The position numbers and the translations under genes were made by a program. The notes under the pieces were generated by a model. That model made no database searches. It saw only the letters and a list, made by a program, of their open reading frames with translations, and had not been told where the DNA came from. A stretch of DNA of 64,000 nt from Alphaproteobacteria bacterium (lineage in GTDB: Bacteria > Pseudomonadota > Alphaproteobacteria > UBA828). Location of the stretch: assembly GCA_965221125.1 (NCBI GenBank), contig CBDCRW010000002.1:32001-96000 (forward strand), written 5' to 3'. This document shows, in pieces, positions 29,230-38,949 of this stretch; position 1 is the first letter of the stretch; each line of letters opens with the position of its first letter.

Positions 29230-29433
29230 CACCGACTGGGGCGGCGACGGCAACAAAATGTGGAAGGGCTACGCGCCCATCGCCCTCAGCGCCAGCTCGG
29301 CCAGCTGCTCGTTGGTGCCACGCGACTGGCTATCCAACGGGATGGCGACGGCGTCGCCGGGCTCGACCGCGGACAGGCCGAACACCGTATCGAACGCCCG
29401 GATCCACTTCGCCTCGACCCGCTCCTACAACAT
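29230..29433 (-). pseudogene. Fragment of a peptidase M29 / NicX-like gene
   Basis: ML*ERVEAKWIRAFDTVFGLSAVEPGDAVAI...QSRGTNEQLAELAL with in-frame stops; family recalled, not searched. Confidence 0.4.
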
Positions 29434-29608
29434 GATGCCCTCCCCGCCGCAACGCTCCGACCCCAGCAACACGCCAAGCCGCGGACGGAGCCAACGGGGC
29501 AGGCGGCATGCCGGGCGTGTCAACCGCGCTGAGCCGGTTGGGGCTTCCGTTTCGCGCGGCCGATCTGTATCAGTCCACCGGACCGGACCAAACCGACAGG
29601 CCCCTGCC

Positions 29609-32600
29609 ATGTCCACGCCCGACTTCGATGCCTATCTCCGCGCGCTTCGCGAAATTCCGCTGGACGAACATACGGAATTTACTGGCCGGACGGCGCTGGA
29701 AACTCTGTTACGGGGCGTCGCCTCCCGGCAAACGGGCGGACGGATCGGAGTCCAGCAGGAACCCAAGAGAGAAGCCGGCAAGGGCGCACCGGATTTCAAG
29801 GTTTCGCGCCAGGGCATGATCCTCGGCTATGTCGAGACCAAGCCTGTCGGCGAAAATCTCGACCGGGTTCTGAAATCCGATCAATTGAAGAAATACGGGA
29901 GCCTTTCCGACAACATCCTGGTTACGGACTATCTGCATTTTGTATGGATAAACAAAGACGGCGTACAACGCGAAACGCTGTGCCACGCGACGGATCTCGA
30001 ATCTCCACAATTCAGGGCGCGGGAGGACCGAGCGGCAGAGGTCGCGCGATTGCTGAACGGGTTCTTTTCGACGGCCCCGCAGGGAATCGGCCGGTCGCAG
30101 ATTCTGGCTCAGGCGCTTGCCGTGCGCAGCCGATTGCTGCGGGACAGTCTCGGCGGGGAACTGGTCCGGCAAAGGAAAGATGACCAACGAGGCCGGTTAT
30201 ACGGGCTGTTTGAAGTCTTCCGCGATCAGGTCTTCCACGAACTGGAACTCCCGGAGTTTGCCGACGCCTTTGCACAGATGCTGGCCTACGGACTGTTTCT
30301 GGCAAGAATCAATTCTGGAACCGATGCCGTCACCTTGCAGAACGCCCGGCAATTCGTGCCGGGCTCGTTCCGCCTGATCCGGGAACTGGTCGAATTTCTG
30401 CCCGAACTGGAAGGCCCGGAATACCGAGATGTCCGCTGGGTGGTCGAGGAAATCCTGTCCATCGTCAACGGCCTCGACATGGCGGCGATCCATGACGACC
30501 TGTCGTTCCGGCAGCGCCGGGCGATCAGCAGGAATGTGCGCGCCGGGGATGAGGAAGAGCACCGGTTGTTCGAGCGCGACCCCTTCATCTACTTCTACGA
30601 GGACTATCTCAAGGCGTACGACGCAAGGACGCGCAAGAGCCGCGGCGTCTACTACACGCCGCCGCCGGTCGTGAACTTCATCGTCCGGGCCATCGACGAC
30701 ATCCTCAAGGACAGCTTCGGCATCGAGGACGGCCTCGCCGACCATAAACGGGTAACGGTACTCGACTTCGCCTGCGGCACCGGAACCTTCCTGCTGGAAG
30801 TCTTCGAGCGAATCTTCGACCAGATCGGCGGACCCGCAGCTGGCCGTGCCAACTTGATTGTCCGCGAGCATTTGCTCAAGAACATATTCGGGTTCGAATT
30901 TTTGATTGCGCCATACACCATCGCCCATCTGAAATTATCTCAATATCTAGGCGACAAGGGGCATTCTCTTGAAGACGGAGATCGGCTCAAGATCTTTCTT
31001 ACAAACACTCTGGAGCCGATCGCACCGCAGCCAAACCTGCTGCTTCCTGCGGTTACCGCGGAAGTAGAGGCTGCGCAAGAAATCAAAGAAAAACCTATCC
31101 TCGTCATTACCGGGAATCCACCCTACGCCGGACACTCAAAGAACAATGGCGAGTGGATCACTTCAAGAATCGAAGATTACAAGTTTGTCGACGGCAAACA
31201 CTTTGGAGAACGTAAACACTGGCTCCAGGATGACTACGTCAAGTTTATTCGTTTTGCGCAAGAAAAAATGAAAGATGTCCCTAGAGGTATCGTAGCATTG
31301 ATTTCAAATCATTCCTGGCTTTCCAGTCCGACTTTCCGCGGTATGCGACAATCATTACTGAACTCATTTCATCAGATACACGTTATAGATTTGCACGGCA
31401 GCACAAAGCCGAAAGAAACCCCTCCAGGTGGCGAACGAAACGAGAATGTGTTTGACATTATGAAGGGTGTGGCGATATCACTGTTCATTAAAGACGAAAA
31501 TTTGGAACGCGGCGTGTGGCACGGTGACATTTGGGGTCGTCGTCTCGAAAAATATCAATTTTGTGCCGCCGCAGACTACCGAACAGCAACCTCGGCTCGA
31601 ATAGAGCCAGAAACTCCGTATTATTTTCTTCGACCTCATAGCTCGGATGAAGTGTGGAAGGGATTTTTGTCACTGGAGGAAATTTTCATGCGACAAAGCG
31701 TTGGAATGTTGACCGCGAGAGACAAGTTCAATGTCGAGTTCAGTAAGTCCGAATTAATTCAGAAGTTGAACGAATTTGCAACACTTTCGCAGGAAAGAGC
31801 ACGTACGCGTTTTTCTCTAGGCCAAGACTCGAGAGATTGGAAAGTATCGTTGGCGCAAGATGATTTACGTTCTTCGGGTATCGAAGAAGGAAATTTAATT
31901 TCCGTTTTCTATCGACCATTTGATAACCGATTTGTATATTACACGGGAAAGTCCAAGGGGTTAATTGGTCAACCGGCAAAGGTTTTGTTTGACGCAATTG
32001 AGTTACCTTCTATTGCCTTAAGTACAGTAAAACGTGTGGAGGAAGGAGAATTTCGACATGCGCTAGTTTGTTCAAAGTTGCCAGACGGGCATTCGGTCTC
32101 GTCGAAAGAGACGACGCATGTGTTTCCACTATACTGGTGTCAGGAGGGCACAGGGAGTTCAACCGGTAAGATTGCAAATTTGTACCCGGATTTTAGAGAG
32201 TCATTAGATGCGCGGTTTGAAGACCACTACACACCAGAAGATATACTAGGTTACATATATGCGATTATGTACGCGCCGAGCTACCTAAGAGATTATGCAG
32301 AATTCTTGTGTATTGATTATCCTCGTATTCCGCTCCCGACGTCCGGCAAGGACTTTGAATTACTTTCACAGCTTGGGTGGACGCTCACACAATCACACTT
32401 GCTGATTGATGTATTGCGCCTCGGGCTCGCTCGTTACCACGGCCAAGGTGACGATATGATAGCGGCTGTTCGCTATTCGGCACGTGAAGAGTCGATCCAC
32501 ATTAACAAGACGCAATGTTTTCGGCCGGTGCCTCAGGCGGTGTGGGACTTTTGTATCGGCGGCTACCAGGTGCTCGACAAGTATCTGAAGTCACGAAGGG

Positions 32601-32725
32601 GTCGAACTCTGTCGCTCGACGAGATCGACCACGTTGCGAAGGTCGCGGACAGCGTCGCCTTCACGATCGACCAGATGGCGGCCATCGACGGAGCCTACAA
32701 GGCAGCGTTCAAAACCTCGAGGTAA
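29609..32725 (+). CDS. Single-chain restriction-modification enzyme (type IIG/IIL, ISP-like specificity domain), N6-adenine methyltransferase
   Basis: PDFKV...GYVETK nuclease; GVYYTPPPVV; VLDFACGTGTFL; ITGNPPY; YRPFD; IGGYQVLDKYLKSR. Confidence 0.9.
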   Translation: MSTPDFDAYLRALREIPLDEHTEFTGRTALETLLRGVASRQTGGRIGVQQEPKREAGKGAPDFKVSRQGMILGYVETKPVGENLDRVLKSDQLKKYGSLSDNILVTDYLHFVWINKDGVQRETLCHATDLESPQFRAREDRAAEVARLLNGFFSTAPQGIGRSQILAQALAVRSRLLRDSLGGELVRQRKDDQRGRLYGLFEVFRDQVFHELELPEFADAFAQMLAYGLFLARINSGTDAVTLQNARQFVPGSFRLIRELVEFLPELEGPEYRDVRWVVEEILSIVNGLDMAAIHDDLSFRQRRAISRNVRAGDEEEHRLFERDPFIYFYEDYLKAYDARTRKSRGVYYTPPPVVNFIVRAIDDILKDSFGIEDGLADHKRVTVLDFACGTGTFLLEVFERIFDQIGGPAAGRANLIVREHLLKNIFGFEFLIAPYTIAHLKLSQYLGDKGHSLEDGDRLKIFLTNTLEPIAPQPNLLLPAVTAEVEAAQEIKEKPILVITGNPPYAGHSKNNGEWITSRIEDYKFVDGKHFGERKHWLQDDYVKFIRFAQEKMKDVPRGIVALISNHSWLSSPTFRGMRQSLLNSFHQIHVIDLHGSTKPKETPPGGERNENVFDIMKGVAISLFIKDENLERGVWHGDIWGRRLEKYQFCAAADYRTATSARIEPETPYYFLRPHSSDEVWKGFLSLEEIFMRQSVGMLTARDKFNVEFSKSELIQKLNEFATLSQERARTRFSLGQDSRDWKVSLAQDDLRSSGIEEGNLISVFYRPFDNRFVYYTGKSKGLIGQPAKVLFDAIELPSIALSTVKRVEEGEFRHALVCSKLPDGHSVSSKETTHVFPLYWCQEGTGSSTGKIANLYPDFRESLDARFEDHYTPEDILGYIYAIMYAPSYLRDYAEFLCIDYPRIPLPTSGKDFELLSQLGWTLTQSHLLIDVLRLGLARYHGQGDDMIAAVRYSAREESIHINKTQCFRPVPQAVWDFCIGGYQVLDKYLKSRRGRTLSLDEIDHVAKVADSVAFTIDQMAAIDGAYKAAFKTSR

Positions 32726-32811
32726 GTTCGAAAATTCGCTGGTGCGGACGGCATGCTGAATGTATGGTCCGTTTTGGTCTGTACCACCATATGTAGGACA
32801 ATCGACCAGCG

Positions 32812-33090
32812 ATGGACCTGAACGGCATGCCGGACGGAAACGTACAGGGCGATCTGTTCGGAGAGGCGAAGCCGCCGGCATACCGGCCGGATCTGGAGCG
32901 GGTACGCCGACGGATCGACAGCATTCTGACGGAGCTTCGCGGCGAGGAATCGGTACGGGACTGGCCTTACGGGCAGGCCTCATTCTTCCGCATGGTGATG
33001 CCGAACCTGACCCGCTGGCTGCCTGAAGACGAAGCCGGGCAATTCACGTCGGAGTTCGAAGCGGAGATGGCGCGGCTCGAAGCCGCCTGA
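32812..33090 (+). CDS. Hypothetical protein (92 aa) downstream of the R-M gene
   Basis: QGDLFG...YRPDLERVRRR...WLPEDEAGQF...EMARLEAA; plausible codon usage. Confidence 0.6.
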   Translation: MDLNGMPDGNVQGDLFGEAKPPAYRPDLERVRRRIDSILTELRGEESVRDWPYGQASFFRMVMPNLTRWLPEDEAGQFTSEFEAEMARLEAA

Positions 33091-33138
33091 CGCGCCAGTG
33101 GGCGCCCTAATGTCTCCACCCCCCGCGCGCAGACCCCC

Positions 33139-33437
33139 TCACGTCGCCAGCACGACCCGGCCGACGATGCGTCCCGCTTTCATGTCGTCCAGAGTCTTCA
33201 AGGCTTCGGCGAGCGCCATCAGCTCGGTCAATTCCGCCGGGCTGCCGACATAGCTACTGGTGAGCATCATCGAGATCAGCGGCGGCAACGGCACCTCGCC
33301 GCCCATCAGACCGACGACGATCACCGTGCCGCGTCGGCCGACGGTGCGCACGACGAAGCCGGCCCTCGCCGCCGCGTCGACGAAATCGACCACCGCCGGT
33401 GCGCCGCTGCCGGTCAGCTTGCGGACCTGCCTGACCG
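33139..33437 (-). pseudogene. Zn-dependent alcohol dehydrogenase C-terminal remnant
   Basis: VDFV...GTVIVVGLMGG...SYVGSPAEL...LDDMKAGRIVGRVVL; N-terminus missing. Confidence 0.6.
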
Positions 33438-33485
33438 CTCAATGGTGCGTGAACCAGCAGGCGCCGTTACGACTCCGGAATAATT

Positions 33486-33629
33486 CGCCGTGATTTGGCG
33501 AACGACGTCCTTGCCTCGCATCGACCGCCCCCAGACATGGGTGAAGCCGAGGAAGTCGAACGTCGTGGCCGATGCCATCCAGTGACGCCCGTGGGGGCGT
33601 CTCCGACGGAAGTCCACATAGCGCGTCTT
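33486..33629 (-). pseudogene. ltrA: Group II intron RT, distal fragment (domain 7)
   Basis: KTRYVDF...TFDFLGFTHVWGRS...VRQITA; in frame with the proximal part once the IS110 is removed. Confidence 0.85.
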
Positions 33630-33640
33630 CCGTAATGGGG

Positions 33641-34068
33641 CGGTTGATGTCAAACACCGATCTTCACGATCTTCCGGCCTGGCACGGTGGCTCGCACATG
33701 AAGCACCGTAGCCTGTTGCAAATCGAATCACAGGCGCGGTCAACATAGCGGATTGCCATGGCGGGAGCGGCTAACTGACTCGTCTGCGCGGCAAAGAAGG
33801 AAGCGGGATTCCCGGATGTGTCCGTCGCCAGGCTCTCGCTTCCGTCCGTGGTCAGCGCAGCGGCTGCCAACGTCATGCCTGGTCCAAACGATTCCCGAGT
33901 GCCGATCTTGGTCGCGTGCTCGAACGCGATGAAACGGTTCGGCCGACAAGACGCAGCGCGTGCATCAACGGGAACCGCGTCCCGGCGAGGGGACACCGGT
34001 GGATCGCCACCTTCAGGCGCGGCTCTTTCCTCCTCTCGCTTCCGATTGCCGGTGGGATGCAGCCGCGC
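33641..34068 (-). ncRNA. Putative bridge/seek RNA of the IS110 element
   Basis: About 430-nt non-coding region 3' of the transposase; two 8-nt segments (33906-33913, 33947-33954) match opposite strands of the insertion site, within a stem-loop. Confidence 0.7.
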
Positions 34069-35112
34069 CTATGCCGTCTGGAGCGCCATCGCCTCCTCGC
34101 GCGTGAAGCGGAACTCGGTGCCGTCCCGCCACATCCGGTGAAGTACCACGCCGATGCGCCGGGCCAGGGCGACGGTCGCACGCTTCTTGCCACGGAGCTT
34201 CGCCAGACGAAGCGCCCAGGCCTTCAGCCAGTTCGGCCCGGCGGTGCCGTTCAGCATCACCGTGGCGGCCTGATAGAGCGCGGTACGCAGACCTGCGTCG
34301 CCGCACTTCGTGATGCCGCCGACAATATCTCGCTCGCCGGATTGGTCCCGGCCCGGCGTCAGTCCCACCCAGGGGCCGACATCCTTCGATCTCCGGAACC
34401 GCCCGGGATCGTCAATCGCCGATTTGAAGGTCAGGGCCACGACCGCGCCTACGCCGGGCATGGTCATCAGCAGCCGGCATACCGGATCCTCCCTGGCCAG
34501 ATCGCGGACCAGCTTCTCCAGGCCGGCCAGCTCGCGGCGCAGAGCCACCCGCGCGCGCAGGATCGGTTCGGCGGCGGCCTCCAGCATCGCGTTGCCTGCG
34601 ATCAACTCCCGGACGCGGGCCTCCCAGCGGCCCTTCGAGACCTGGCCCAGCTTCAGGCCAAAGTTGCGCAACACGCCGCGCAGCGAGAGTTCCATATCGG
34701 TGAGCGCGCCCTTCACGGACCTGCGCGAGGTCAGCAGTGCGCGCATCTCCTGCGACGATACCGACTTGCAGTGCACCGGCCTGAACCAGCCCATCTGCAA
34801 GAGCCGTGCGATGCCCTCGGCATCCCGGCGATCCGTCTTGATCGGCATCGCCTTCAGCGCCGCCTTCACCCGCCGGGTCTCCATAAGGACGGCCTCGAAG
34901 CCGGCGTCGGTCAGCCCCTTGTGCAACCAGTGGGACAGGGGACCGGCCTCAAGACCGATCACGGCGATCTCGTGCTCCAGCTTGCCCATGAACGCAACCA
35001 ACGCGTCAGGCGTGCTGGCGACCTGAGCCTCGGTCACGATCTTGCCCTTGTCGCCGATCACGCAGATTGTCGTGCTTGCCAGCGATACATCCAGCCCGAT
35101 ATAGACAGCCAT
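34069..35112 (-). CDS. IS110 family transposase (DEDD recombinase)
   Basis: YIGLDVS, IGLEAG, KTDRRDAEGIA, GLTPGRDQSG; apparently intact (347 aa). Confidence 0.93.
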   Translation of the reverse strand: MAVYIGLDVSLASTTICVIGDKGKIVTEAQVASTPDALVAFMGKLEHEIAVIGLEAGPLSHWLHKGLTDAGFEAVLMETRRVKAALKAMPIKTDRRDAEGIARLLQMGWFRPVHCKSVSSQEMRALLTSRRSVKGALTDMELSLRGVLRNFGLKLGQVSKGRWEARVRELIAGNAMLEAAAEPILRARVALRRELAGLEKLVRDLAREDPVCRLLMTMPGVGAVVALTFKSAIDDPGRFRRSKDVGPWVGLTPGRDQSGERDIVGGITKCGDAGLRTALYQAATVMLNGTAGPNWLKAWALRLAKLRGKKRATVALARRIGVVLHRMWRDGTEFRFTREEAMALQTA

Positions 35113-35260
35113 GTCGTTGCCCTTTCCTCTCGAAGGATTGGGGCGCGCCTTCCGGCAAGACCCCGTGAGCACGCTGAGCGTGCAAGGGCAACGACACCCG
35201 ATTCGTCGTCATCGGGACAGGCTCCGATGGTACCGATTGGCGCCGAGCCCCATTACGGCA

Positions 35261-36140
35261 TCTTGGTCTCATGGAGCGTGAGCCCGTATCGACCGAGACG
35301 TTTGCCCAGCGCGTCAAGCAGCCGCTTGCCGCTGTGGCGGTCTTCGAGGGCGACGACAAAGTCATCGGCGAATCGCACCAGCTGGCAGTTTCCGCGTAGG
35401 CGCGGTTTCGCCACTTTCTCGAACCACTCGTCCAGCACATGGTGCAGGAAAACGTTCGATAATAGCGGCGAGATCACCCCGCCTTGGGGAGTGCCAGCGA
35501 CCGGCCTGTGCACGGTGCCCTCTTCGAGCACCCCTGCCTTCAGCCATTTGTCGATCTTGCGCCTTGCGACGCCGTCCTTGATCCGCAGGTCGAGGAACGA
35601 CCGGAGGTGGGTGTGCGAGATCGAGTCGAAGTAGGATTTCAAATCCGCGTCGATCACCCATCTTTGGCGCTGCTCGATGATGCCCGCACGCAGCGCGTCC
35701 AGGGCATCGTGAGCCGACCGTCCGCGCCGGAAGCCGTAGGAGCACGGCAGAAAGTCCGCCTCGTAGATCGGCTCCAGCAGCATCAGGATCGCCCGCTGTG
35801 CCACCTTGTCTTCGAACGTCGGGATGCCGAGAGGGCGCTTCGTCCCGTCCGCCTTGGGGATGTAGTGCCGTCGCACCGGCGGCGCGAAGTAGCGGCCCGA
35901 CTTCATCCGGCACAGGAGGTCATCAAGATTGGCCTCCAGGTCCTTCTCGTAGTCGACCGCCGTCACGCCGTCGATGCCCGTCGCCCCATCCTTGCGCGTC
36001 AGGCGATACGCTTCGCGCATCCACTCGCCGTCGATCAGGTGGTGCAGGGACGTGAACACCCGGTCCGGATGCTCCCTCGCCTGTTCGGCTATCCACTGCT
36101 GTTTCGTGTACGTGTTGGTGGAACTCAGGGTTTCCTCCAG
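35261..36140 (-). pseudogene. ltrA: Group II intron reverse transcriptase/maturase, proximal fragment
   Basis: GATGIDG, RPLGIPTFEDKVAQ, SYGFRRGRSAHDA, DADLKSYFD, GTPQGGVISPLLSN, RFADD. Confidence 0.9.
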
Positions 36141-36839
36141 CGTTTCCCATCAGTGGGTCTGGTCAGGTGACGCCCCGCTTCCCTCCAGCGGGTCCCGATG
36201 GCCACGGTTCCCCGCCTTCAGCGGTACTATCAGGGCGCTACGACTTCCTGCTCCCGCATGTCCTTCGGCTTATTGATTTCGCCAGCCGGCTCCGCAGGCG
36301 CCTGCCAAGTTCGTGTCCGCCCTGTGGGGCGCTCCCGTCGCCGTGCAGACCCGGCGGCGGGCCAGGGTCTGGATTGTTCACGCTGGCAGTCCCCTTTCCA
36401 GCGTCCTTGCCCGCGGGCAAGAGCAGGATCTCCCAGGTTCCCTGGCGATCCATCCCGTGACTCTGCGCCGGTCCACGACCCCGGACGACCCGTTGCGCCT
36501 CGCCATTGGCGGCGCTTCCGGTGCTGCCCCCACGTGCTTAACAACGAAGGCGTCATCGCTTCACCGATTTCGAGGCTTACCCCACCGCTTCGTCACCTGC
36601 TGTCTACGCTTCACGACGGACGTTGCCGCACGCCATGCAAGACTCGCTTCCGGCTGGCGGGCTGCGCCTTTGCCGGGCGGGGGTCGAACCCGCTGGACCG
36701 CGACGAGAGGTTTCAGTTCATGGCATCCTCCTCTCCAGGGCTTACCCTGGCGCAATAAGCATCCGGCGAAGGCCCTTTGGCTCCGTTGAGAGAGGATGGT
36801 GGCGGTGACGGGACGCGCGGCGAACGCGGAGATGCCGGC

Positions 36840-37427
36840 CTACTCGGCTTCCGTCAGCGCGATCACACTGCTGCGGAGTGAATGCAGGAGTTCATCGAGC
36901 GCGCGTCGATCCCCGGCCCCGTACTTCAGGCCCATCGCAACGGTGACGACAAATCGTGCCAACTGGGCGGGCGTCTGGCCGGAGCTGGCAATGGCATCGG
37001 CATGGGGCTCCAGCAATTCGGCAATCAGCGCCGCCTGACGGGCGTGGGCCTCCTCGATCGCCGCCCTTCCCGCCTCGTTGTGACCGCTGATCAAGTCCTC
37101 CGGGTCGCCTGCCTCCTGCAGCATCTCGAAGGACTTCACCACCGTCTCCTCGAAATAGACGTCGAGCCGTTCGCCCAAGGTGCCGCAACCGCCGAGCCGC
37201 GCCCGGATCGCCGCCAGCGACGCCTCCGAGACGTGGCGGATGCACGCCACGATGATCCCGTCCTTGTCGCCGAAGGACGCGTAGACGGTCTGGCGCGACA
37301 CCCCGGCCGCCTCGGCAATGTCCGCCATGGTCGTCTTCTTCGCGCCATAGCGGACAAAGATGCCGATCGCGGCCTCGACGATCCGTGCTTCGGTCTCGGA
37401 GAGGGGGATGCGACGCACGCTGCTCAT
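36840..37427 (-). CDS. TetR/AcrR family transcriptional regulator
   Basis: TTMADIAEAAGVSRQTVYASFGDKD HTH; divergent from the SDR gene. Confidence 0.9.
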   Translation of the reverse strand: MSSVRRIPLSETEARIVEAAIGIFVRYGAKKTTMADIAEAAGVSRQTVYASFGDKDGIIVACIRHVSEASLAAIRARLGGCGTLGERLDVYFEETVVKSFEMLQEAGDPEDLISGHNEAGRAAIEEAHARQAALIAELLEPHADAIASSGQTPAQLARFVVTVAMGLKYGAGDRRALDELLHSLRSSVIALTEAE

Positions 37428-37528
37428 GCAGGGGGAGATATCTCAGGATTCACGACTTGACAAGATGTGGTTGCATGTAAGATATACTGTACAGAACGTC
37501 ATAATCTGTCGATATGTAAGGACGCGCC

Positions 37529-38374
37529 ATGACCCAGACCGTTCTCATCACCGGATGCTCCAGCGGATTCGGCAGGCTGACCGCCCAGACCTTCCAAGAC
37601 GCGGGCTGGAACGTTGTCGCCACAATGCGCGCGCCCGAAAGGGTGCCTGAGCTTGCCGACGACGACCGGATGCTGGTCCTCAAGCTGGACGTCACCGACC
37701 CGGCCAGCATCTCCGCTGCCTTCGCCGCCGCGCGCGCACGATTCGGCCGCATCGATGCCGTCGTGAACAATGCTGGTTATGGAGGCGACGGCCTGTTCGA
37801 GCAGGCCAGCGACACGGATATCCGCGCCATGTTCGAGACCAACGTGTTCGGCCCGATGAACGTCATGCGCGAGGCGCTGCCCGAGATGAGGGCGGCGGCG
37901 AATGGCGCCATCGTCAACGTGACCTCGATGGCCGGTCACCTGGGCCTGCCGCGGCACGCGGTCTACGCCGCCTCGAAGCACGCCATGATCGGCCTGACCG
38001 AGAGCATGGCGCTGGAATACAAGCCCCTGGGGGTGCGCATCCACTCGGTCGCGCCGGGCGCCTATCCGACCACCGCGTTCGGCGTCAATACCGACGATCG
38101 GCTGGAGGTGGGCGACGCCCAGCTCGTCGCGTTCTCCAAGCGCCTGCGGGCGCAGATGACCGCGGTGGGCGAGCAGATGGCGAACCAGGGCGGGAATCTC
38201 GCCGATCCGCAGGAGGTTGCCGACCGGATCTTCCAGTGCGTCACGGGCGATGCGCCGATCAACAATCCGACCGGTGCCGACGCGGAGATGCTGATCGCGA
38301 TGATGGGGCAGGACAAGCGCCAGGCATTCCTGGACCAGCTCGGCGCCATGCTCGTGCCCCCGTCTGCCGCCTGA
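37529..38374 (+). CDS. Short-chain dehydrogenase/reductase
   Basis: ITGCSSGFG, VVNNAG, YAASK. Confidence 0.93.
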   Translation: MTQTVLITGCSSGFGRLTAQTFQDAGWNVVATMRAPERVPELADDDRMLVLKLDVTDPASISAAFAAARARFGRIDAVVNNAGYGGDGLFEQASDTDIRAMFETNVFGPMNVMREALPEMRAAANGAIVNVTSMAGHLGLPRHAVYAASKHAMIGLTESMALEYKPLGVRIHSVAPGAYPTTAFGVNTDDRLEVGDAQLVAFSKRLRAQMTAVGEQMANQGGNLADPQEVADRIFQCVTGDAPINNPTGADAEMLIAMMGQDKRQAFLDQLGAMLVPPSAA

Positions 38375-38424
38375 CCGGCCGTGCTCCCGACGACCCGATG
38401 GGCCGGTTCGCGAGGCTATGTGAG

Positions 38425-38949
38425 ATGTCGAAGCCCCGCTCCCTCGTCAAATGGGGTGTCCCCACCGCCCTCCTGATCGTCTTGATCGTCGCGGTGGCGG
38501 GCGCGCTCGCCACCCGCAAGACCTTCCTCGTGGAGATCTGGATCCCCGCCCCGCCCGAGGCGGTGTGGGAGGTTCTGATCGACACGGGGGCTTACCCGCA
38601 ATGGAACCCGGTCTTCGTCGAGGTCGACGGCGCCTATGCGGAGGGGGAGACGGTGCTGAACAGGGTTCGGGAGCCAAGCGGCGCGATCCTGGAAATGACC
38701 GCGAAGGTGGAGACCCTTCTGCCAAACGCGGAGCTGCGCCAGTCGGGGGGCATCCCCGGCATATTGACCTTCGACCATCGCTGGCTTCTGGAGCCTGCGG
38801 ATGGCGGAACGAAGGTCGTTCAGCACGAAGTGGACCGTGGCATCGGCCTCTGGTTCTGGAGCTCGGACTGGCTCGAGCCCGCCTATGCGGCCACCAACGA
38901 GGCGTTGGCAGAGAGGGTGCGTTCAGAGATGGCGAAGCCGGGCAACTGA
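38425..38949 (+). CDS. SRPBCC (polyketide cyclase/START-like) domain protein with N-terminal anchor
   Basis: IPAPPEAVWEVLIDTGAYPQWNP; hydrophobic N-terminus. Confidence 0.8.
   Translation: MSKPRSLVKWGVPTALLIVLIVAVAGALATRKTFLVEIWIPAPPEAVWEVLIDTGAYPQWNPVFVEVDGAYAEGETVLNRVREPSGAILEMTAKVETLLPNAELRQSGGIPGILTFDHRWLLEPADGGTKVVQHEVDRGIGLWFWSSDWLEPAYAATNEALAERVRSEMAKPGN

Follow-up and report, generated by a model that had tools for sequence, protein, structure and literature searches.

The closest described relatives of the element treated here are the IS1111 elements with a seekRNA (ISEc11, ISPa11, and ISKpn4; Siddiquee et al. 2024, PMC11187229) and the insertion sequence (IS) IS621 (Durrant et al. 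2024, PMC11208160; 8wt6). In this study, we analyzed a stretch of 64,000 nucleotides (nt) from an alphaproteobacterium (contig CBDCRW010000002.1), hereafter called the window, in which the interval 33626-35264 is a minus-strand IS of the IS110 family, IS1111 type. According to the two papers used for comparison, IS1111 elements with a seekRNA combine a transposase of 330-350 amino acids (aa) with subterminal inverted repeats and a long non-coding region 3′ of the gene. The latter two features define the group (PMC11187229, PMC11208160), and the motif GL-P----S(T)G in the C-terminal domain is the signature of its transposases (PMC11187229, section 6). Two segments of the RNA match opposite target strands and overlap at the crossover, the complement of the top strand being located 5′. 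The window element is alike in these respects, whereas its target and its host lineage are others and its RNA is a predicted one. With IS621 it shares the CU and AG strands over a CT core and probably the two-loop logic; the RNA of IS621 is located upstream of the gene and its subterminal repeats comprise 2-3 base pairs (bp), in contrast to a downstream RNA and repeats of 12 bp in the window element. That insertion of this IS1111-type element is guided by a seek/bridge RNA appears highly probable to us, above all because the two strands of the target-binding loop match the flanks of the inserted copies and vary together with these flanks across relatives.

Family assignment and limits of the element

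Membership in the IS110/IS1111 family, which an earlier note on this DNA had claimed from the letters alone, was supported by profile searches with the transposase. Pfam matches were obtained to DEDD_Tnp_IS110 (PF01548, 60.2 bits) and Transposase_20 (PF02371, 78.1 bits), and the NCBIfam model NF033542 'IS110 family RNA-guided transposase' was matched with 251 bits at a cutoff of 140. The C-terminal domain is related to that of the IS621 transposase 8wt6 (E 3.8e-13), whereas the N-terminal domain can barely be aligned to it by sequence. Recognizable motifs are YIGLDVS (4-10), GLEAGP (53-58), KTDRRDAEG (92-100), and GLTPGRDQSGE (250-260), the last of which fits the GL-P----S(T)G signature and is aligned to GLTPRRYESGS of IS621. 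The subterminal inverted repeats are perfect, lie 1 and 3 nt inward of the core, and with 12 bp fall within the 7-17 bp of the IS1111 group. Downstream of the transposase gene, about 440 nt are non-coding (34068-33629), compared to about 150 nt upstream (35261-35113). Also as in the IS1111 group, insertion is sequence-specific with a short common core in place of a target duplication.

The IS proper spans 33629-35261 (1633 bp, or 1635 bp including one core copy). In the genomic copy L005, the base preceding CT differs between the two junctions (CCTT and TCTT), and in the relative L009 the bases flanking the core dinucleotide differ on both sides; therefore, the common core consists of 2 nt, CT. 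A search of Rfam with the interval 32500-38500 at E values up to 1 gave no match except the group II intron described below, and none to the IS RNA. A plasmid search returned just partial matches of 70-79% on Rhodobacterales plasmids, annotated as IS110 family transposase, which added no sites.

Altogether, the element is an ordinary member of a published RNA-guided family to which it adds no new principle, and it may already be named in ISfinder or in the supplements of the family papers. As a confirmed and well-behaved member of this system, it provides a clean case from nature in which the target loop of an IS1111-type element can be read base by base, with six insertion sites in the same genome, an empty site that was observed, and eight close relatives re-aimed by nature.

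Target-binding loop and its covariation with insertion sites

All four strings reported in the earlier note are present at the positions given there, among them GCGUCUUG (minus strand, 33954-33947) and GACCAAGA (minus strand, 33913-33906) as proposed target matches and ATCTTCCG (plus strand, 33669-33676) as proposed donor match. The target matches exceed chance, since only 5 out of 1000 shuffles that kept the dinucleotides of the non-coding region contained both 8-mers together. The flank pattern is found in 6/6 copies. For the structure of the RNA region, an alignment of 11 elements was used (the window element, nine close relatives, and a distant one). The enclosing stem and the inner hairpin described in the earlier note fit this alignment, with 95.5% of the cells pairing versus 27-39% when the partners were slid. 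RNAalifold predicted a module from the same 11 elements with an outer stem (33977-33959/33904-33889), an inner hairpin (33948-33915), and an internal loop of 10 × 10 nt between them.

The two strands of this loop match the flanks of all 6 genomic copies and are taken as the guides (Table 1). Guide 1, CGCUGCGUCU, has the same sequence as the plus strand of the window left of the core, core included, and overlaps GCGUCUUG; guide 2, CGACCAAGAU, is complementary to the plus strand at the core and rightward of it and encloses GACCAAGA. Seen from the RNA, the 5′ strand reads N8-CU and the 3′ strand N6-AG, both covering the CT core. If the RNA is read in the direction of the transposase gene, the top-strand complement precedes the bottom-strand complement. 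Pairwise identity within the alignment was 0.36 for columns 38-47 and 0.37 for columns 82-87, compared to 0.86 for the rest of the RNA; thus, the variable columns coincide almost exactly with the two loop strands. The guide reading is correct and, beyond the 11 nt recognized earlier, covers 16 nt, namely CGACCA-AG-ACGCAGCG in IS orientation.

Relatives were sought in 49 genomes of the same order, 11 of which gave a match, and in 401 genomes sampled from the class, where 5 did. Their transposases are 70-95% identical and the ends are the same, while the loop strands differ. Each combination of guide and flank was scored by the longest stretch over which either strand matched the reconstructed target exactly, the two lengths being added. 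The cognate guide scored best at 14/15 sites, representing 8 guide variants in 6 genomes; on average, cognate combinations reached 14.3 and non-cognate ones 7.1 (105 pairs). Thereby, the proposal that the loop strands read against the target holds over copies and relatives. Left out of the matrix were L010 and L020, which lie nested within another IS copy or lack the left flank, L030 without a right flank, L038 with a right flank only, the loci L040, L041, L045, L042, L043, and L014, identified or studied only afterwards, and duplicate loci of one place (L008, L019, L025, L029, L032, L034, and L035). A metagenome scan for the pattern yielded no match.

Several observations weigh against the guide reading. 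The sole exception in the matrix, L027, is a decayed copy with stop codons that is better fitted by the guide of another variant. Outside the matrix, guide 1 of L040 matches its flank poorly. The variant of L010/L026 requires an offset of 1 nt. Changes on both sides of the stems amount to just 4 pairs, a covariation that is thin because the relatives are close. When 161 nt and 443 nt of the non-coding region were folded as single sequences, the folds did not surpass those of shuffles (z 0.93 and -0.29) and were set aside as evidence. An unoccupied site with a guide match of 15/16 is present at G000 C3:422471. Furthermore, the region is covered by contigs from RNA libraries, which cannot show transcription; parts of the window without cover by such contigs carry no evidential weight here.

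The fact that chance produced both 8-mers in 5/1000 shuffles would also suit an explanation in which the matches are by-products without a role, the target being read by the protein or the strands acting as DNA as in IS200/IS605. However, the loop strands covary with the flanks in 7/8 variants, while the protein remains 85-95% identical, and RNA guidance has been demonstrated experimentally in related elements, as stated in PMC11187229 and PMC11208160. We regard the by-product explanation as very improbable and retain guidance by the RNA.

By analogy to the published biology of the family, the guide would act as an RNA bound to the transposase, and a circle would serve as intermediate. The transposase is a DEDD/serine recombinase, and the 443-nt region downstream of its gene would encode the seek/bridge RNA, transcribed from the minus strand. 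Within one internal loop, the 5′ strand (CGCUGCGU-CU) and the 3′ strand (CGACCA-AG-AU) would pair with opposite DNA strands, each on its own side of the CT core, both together specifying up to 16 nt. A second loop further downstream (GGCAU ... ACGGAAG) would recognize the IS ends as they are joined in the excised circle. The 2-nt core is the predicted place of recombination, which would account for one core copy on each side of the inserted element.

Further observations concern the RNA region and its relatives. RNAalifold also gave an alternative closing stem (columns 5-15/167-177), which competes with the stem 115-120/166-171. In the genomes G048 and G037, the insertions of two other guide variants (L012, L033, L036, and L037) are found close to each other, some dozens of bases apart, where a repeated element has its 5′ end. 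The first open reading frame (ORF) of the repeated element, beginning with MAKHRTHSIAFKRQV, is presumably similar to IS3-family OrfA; therefore, some relatives aim at another mobile element. On C8 of G037 (L010/L020), a second IS copy follows 1.6 kb on and begins inside the left end of the neighbor of the first one, being either nested or tandem. In L040 (G054), the right end of 62 nt is duplicated.

Candidate donor-binding loop and turnover of the guides

As donor guide, the earlier note had put forward ATCTTCCG, which matches the predicted circle junction. This candidate was not supported: an 8-mer junction match occurred in 133/1000 shuffles, i.e., at chance level, and the match is missing in the 85-87% identical relatives L012, L037, and L013 though their IS ends are unchanged or nearly so. 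Instead, the segment 33882-33828 adjoining the target loop on its 3′ side is likely the donor loop, as judged from its covariation with the IS ends. The candidate loop consists of a stem CCAGGC (33882-33877)/GCCUGG (33833-33828) and a hairpin (33869-33849), with GGCAU (33879-33875) as putative 5′ strand and ACGGAAG (33845-33839) as putative 3′ strand. ACGGAAG corresponds to the five terminal bases of the right end together with the core. Four states were found in which it changes along with this end: besides the window state, these are ACAGAAG in L037 (right end TTACAGAAG), ACCGAAG in L042 (TTACCGAAG), and AGAGAAG in L014 (ATAGAGAAG), a relative with a transposase of 54% identity. GGCAU is complementary to ATGCC of the left end, and its counterpart in L014 is CCCAUCUU against AAGATGGG; this distant relative is the only one from which support for the 5′ strand comes. 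When G140 was searched for another copy of the distant relative, the same truncated contig was the only match. Changes on both sides were found for 2 pairs in helix 4 and 1 pair in helix 5. Against the donor reading stands that GGCAU overlaps the predicted stem and in the window clade misses the core, a difference from IS621. The covariation suggests where in the RNA of this subgroup the donor would be recognized.

The guides change much faster than expected from neutral drift. When the window element was compared with L009, identity was 90% at the four-fold silent sites of the transposase gene (n = 203), and 149/163 positions of the RNA scaffold agreed, as opposed to 4/16 guide positions (columns 38-47 and 82-87). 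The 16 positions might be rewritten by a dedicated or templated process that re-aims both loop strands jointly, beyond point mutation and selection. We consider such a process unlikely; strong diversifying selection can explain a fast guide turnover. If templated re-aiming were true, the origin of new target specificities of bridge/seek RNAs could be tested on these close variants. The hypervariability of the guides relative to silent sites is one point that might repay more work.

Table 1. Features of the IS and of the interrupted intron gene in the window. Strand "." marks features given without strand.
Feature	Position	Strand	Basis or remark
Whole IS with a CT core copy per side	33627..35263	-	Cores 33627-33628 and 35262-35263; six full copies, L005/L009 junctions, 1635-base skip
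Transposase gene, 347 aa + stop	34069..35112	-	Pfam, NCBIfam, and IS621 8wt6 matches
Subterminal inverted repeat, right end in IS orientation	33630..33641	.	Plus strand CCGTAATGGGGC; kept in relatives
Subterminal inverted repeat, left end in IS orientation	35247..35258	.	Plus strand GCCCCATTACGG
Target-binding loop module (predicted)	33889..33977	-	RNAalifold consensus; helices 2 and 3 paired to 96.0% and 97.6%
5′ loop strand, guide 1, CGCUGCGUCU	33949..33958	-	Hypervariable columns 38-47; covaries with flanks
3′ loop strand, guide 2, CGACCAAGAU	33905..33914	-	Hypervariable columns 82-87; covaries with flanks
Candidate donor-binding loop	33828..33882	-	Covaries with IS ends; adjoins target loop on 3′ side
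Donor match proposed earlier, ATCTTCCG	33669..33676	+	Probably not functional
N-terminal part of interrupted group II intron reverse transcriptase gene	35253..36059	-	Pfam RVT_1, 117.7 bits; TIGR04416
Reverse transcriptase frame past the IS (KTRYVDF...FDFLGFTH...)	33414..33625	-	No maturase domain found
Group II intron RNA domains D1-D4	36469..36686	-	Rfam RF02005, 114.8 bits, E 8.3e-33

Insertion sites, probable recent activity, and the group II intron

The genome (7 contigs, 4.58 Mb) contains six full copies of the IS, which are 98.3-100% identical and differ from the window copy at 0, 1, 2, 2, and 16 positions, and one fragment of 258 bp. All six share the flank pattern GC(G/A)(T/C)-CT-TGGT(C/A). 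In the plus-strand orientation of the window, the sequences left and right of the CT core are GCGT and TGGTC for the window copy (L002), L003, L004, and L006, GCAT and TGGTA for L001, and GCGC and TGGTC for L005. The window copy interrupts a group II intron reverse transcriptase (RT) gene, L003 an amidohydrolase gene of the AtzD/TrzD type, and two copies are located at codons 1-4 (M-T-K-T) of two HU-like genes, for one of which (L006) a Bac_DNA_binding domain was confirmed. Of the remaining two sites, one falls in the N-terminal region of a protein that has a fervidolysin-type prodomain and the other in an unknown ORF. The same loops were found in a sole other assembled record, a contig of 2668 bp with a copy of 99.6% identity, which again lies at the start of an HU-like gene.

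The empty site reconstructed in the earlier note, GCGCG-TCTT-GGTCTC, is correct: it reads E-T-K-T-R in the RT frame, and contigs from 4/4 public runs connect position 33625 directly with 35261. Exactly 1635 bases are thereby left out, and 4 letters are common to both sides. On the shorter side, the support is strong for X17 (142 letters) and X5 (82 letters) and weak for X9 (24 letters) and X15 (19 letters). Also in line with the intact recombinase proposed in the earlier note, the transposase frame is open in 5/6 copies, of which four encode the identical protein. Open frames and an empty site elsewhere make recent activity plausible, and on the sequence evidence the window region would thus be a recently active IS copy. 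If the window copy were an inactive relic and the pattern due to old insertions only, decay as in L006 (stop at codon 58, 21-bp length difference) and the presence of the IS fragment L007 would be in keeping with this. Copies that differ by 0-2 bases in 1639, the identical protein from four copies with a fifth one open, and the near-identical empty site in X5 (0 and 3 other letters in two pieces) argue against it, and we consider the relic explanation very unlikely compared with recent activity.

The earlier note had further suggested that the element specifically parasitizes group II introns by means of the conserved K-T codons of the RT. The gene struck is the only group II RT gene in the genome, the site lies within conserved RT sequence, and the variants E and H of the relatives are located at the start of what is presumably an IS3-type gene. 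IS4321/IS5075 and attC-targeting IS1111 members reportedly target features of other mobile elements, and members aiming at transposon ends and attC sites are listed in the literature. These members are a precedent for targeting of mobile elements, whereas the recurrent site of the window variant is the start of a chromosomal HU-like gene. When the insertions were tabulated, 1/7 assembled sites of the window guide variant was located in an intron RT gene, compared to 3/7, from two assemblies, at HU-like gene starts. By eye, the loose ends seen in X9, X15, and X17 are also similar to the HU-like flanks of L004/L006. With respect to the full guide CGACCA-AG-ACGCAGCG, the intron site matches at 11/16 positions, the lowest value of the six, while 12/16 were counted for L001, 13/16 each for L003, L004, and L005, and 14/16 for L006 at an HU-like gene start, the best of the six. 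Moreover, the intron site is empty in 4/4 runs, including runs that also contain the IS, and the intron itself has no maturase domain and no D5/D6 match. A literature search on IS1111, group II introns, and target sites gave no paper about such targeting, as judged by title or start of the abstract. We give hardly any credence to a specialization on introns; an attractive, unsupported idea is thereby removed. The recurrent and best-fitting site of the window element is the start of an HU-like gene, and the intron insertion is best read as a probably incidental landing with a partial match on the common codons ACC-AAG-ACG. The RT gene would have been struck because the codons ACC-AAG-ACG-C happen to supply the central 11 nt of the target. 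Of the earlier note, therefore, the guide reading, the family, and the empty site stand, while the donor match ATCTTCCG and the intron targeting do not.

As for unoccupied sites, 4 perfect copies of the 11-mer were counted in the genome against an expectation of 3.1 for independent and identically distributed letters; therefore, the motif itself is not enriched. A paralogue of the L003 amidohydrolase gene has the same 11-mer in unoccupied form (G000 C2:151567). The fragment L007 (G000 C6:220871-221126) comprises 258 bp of the left end of the IS with 95% identity, ends with CATCT, and continues with unrelated sequence; it is probably the remnant of a related variant. In one contig of the RNA library X15, the IS has a deletion of 61 nt (window 34004-34066), by which the first hairpin past the stop codon of the transposase gene is lost.

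The N-terminal part of the RT matches NCBIfam TIGR04416 with 295.5 bits (model positions 4-248 of 353) and ends with HETKMP*, since the IS supplies the stop codon. On the other side of the IS, the interval 33414-33746 matched 0 Pfam families and thus no maturase domain, and Rfam gave no match to the intron domains D5/D6 within 32500-38500. The intron looks like a remnant truncated at its 3′ end. By eye, the RT frame at 33414-33625 departs from family-like sequence about 45 codons past the IS site. An ORF of 84 aa (33139-33393), which we take to resemble the C-terminal end of a zinc-type dehydrogenase, abuts the remnant of the RT frame. Just upstream, an ORF of 1155 aa with an NPPY-type motif (ITGNPPYAG) is located on the plus strand at 29258-32725, presumably resembling a large DNA methyltransferase or restriction enzyme.

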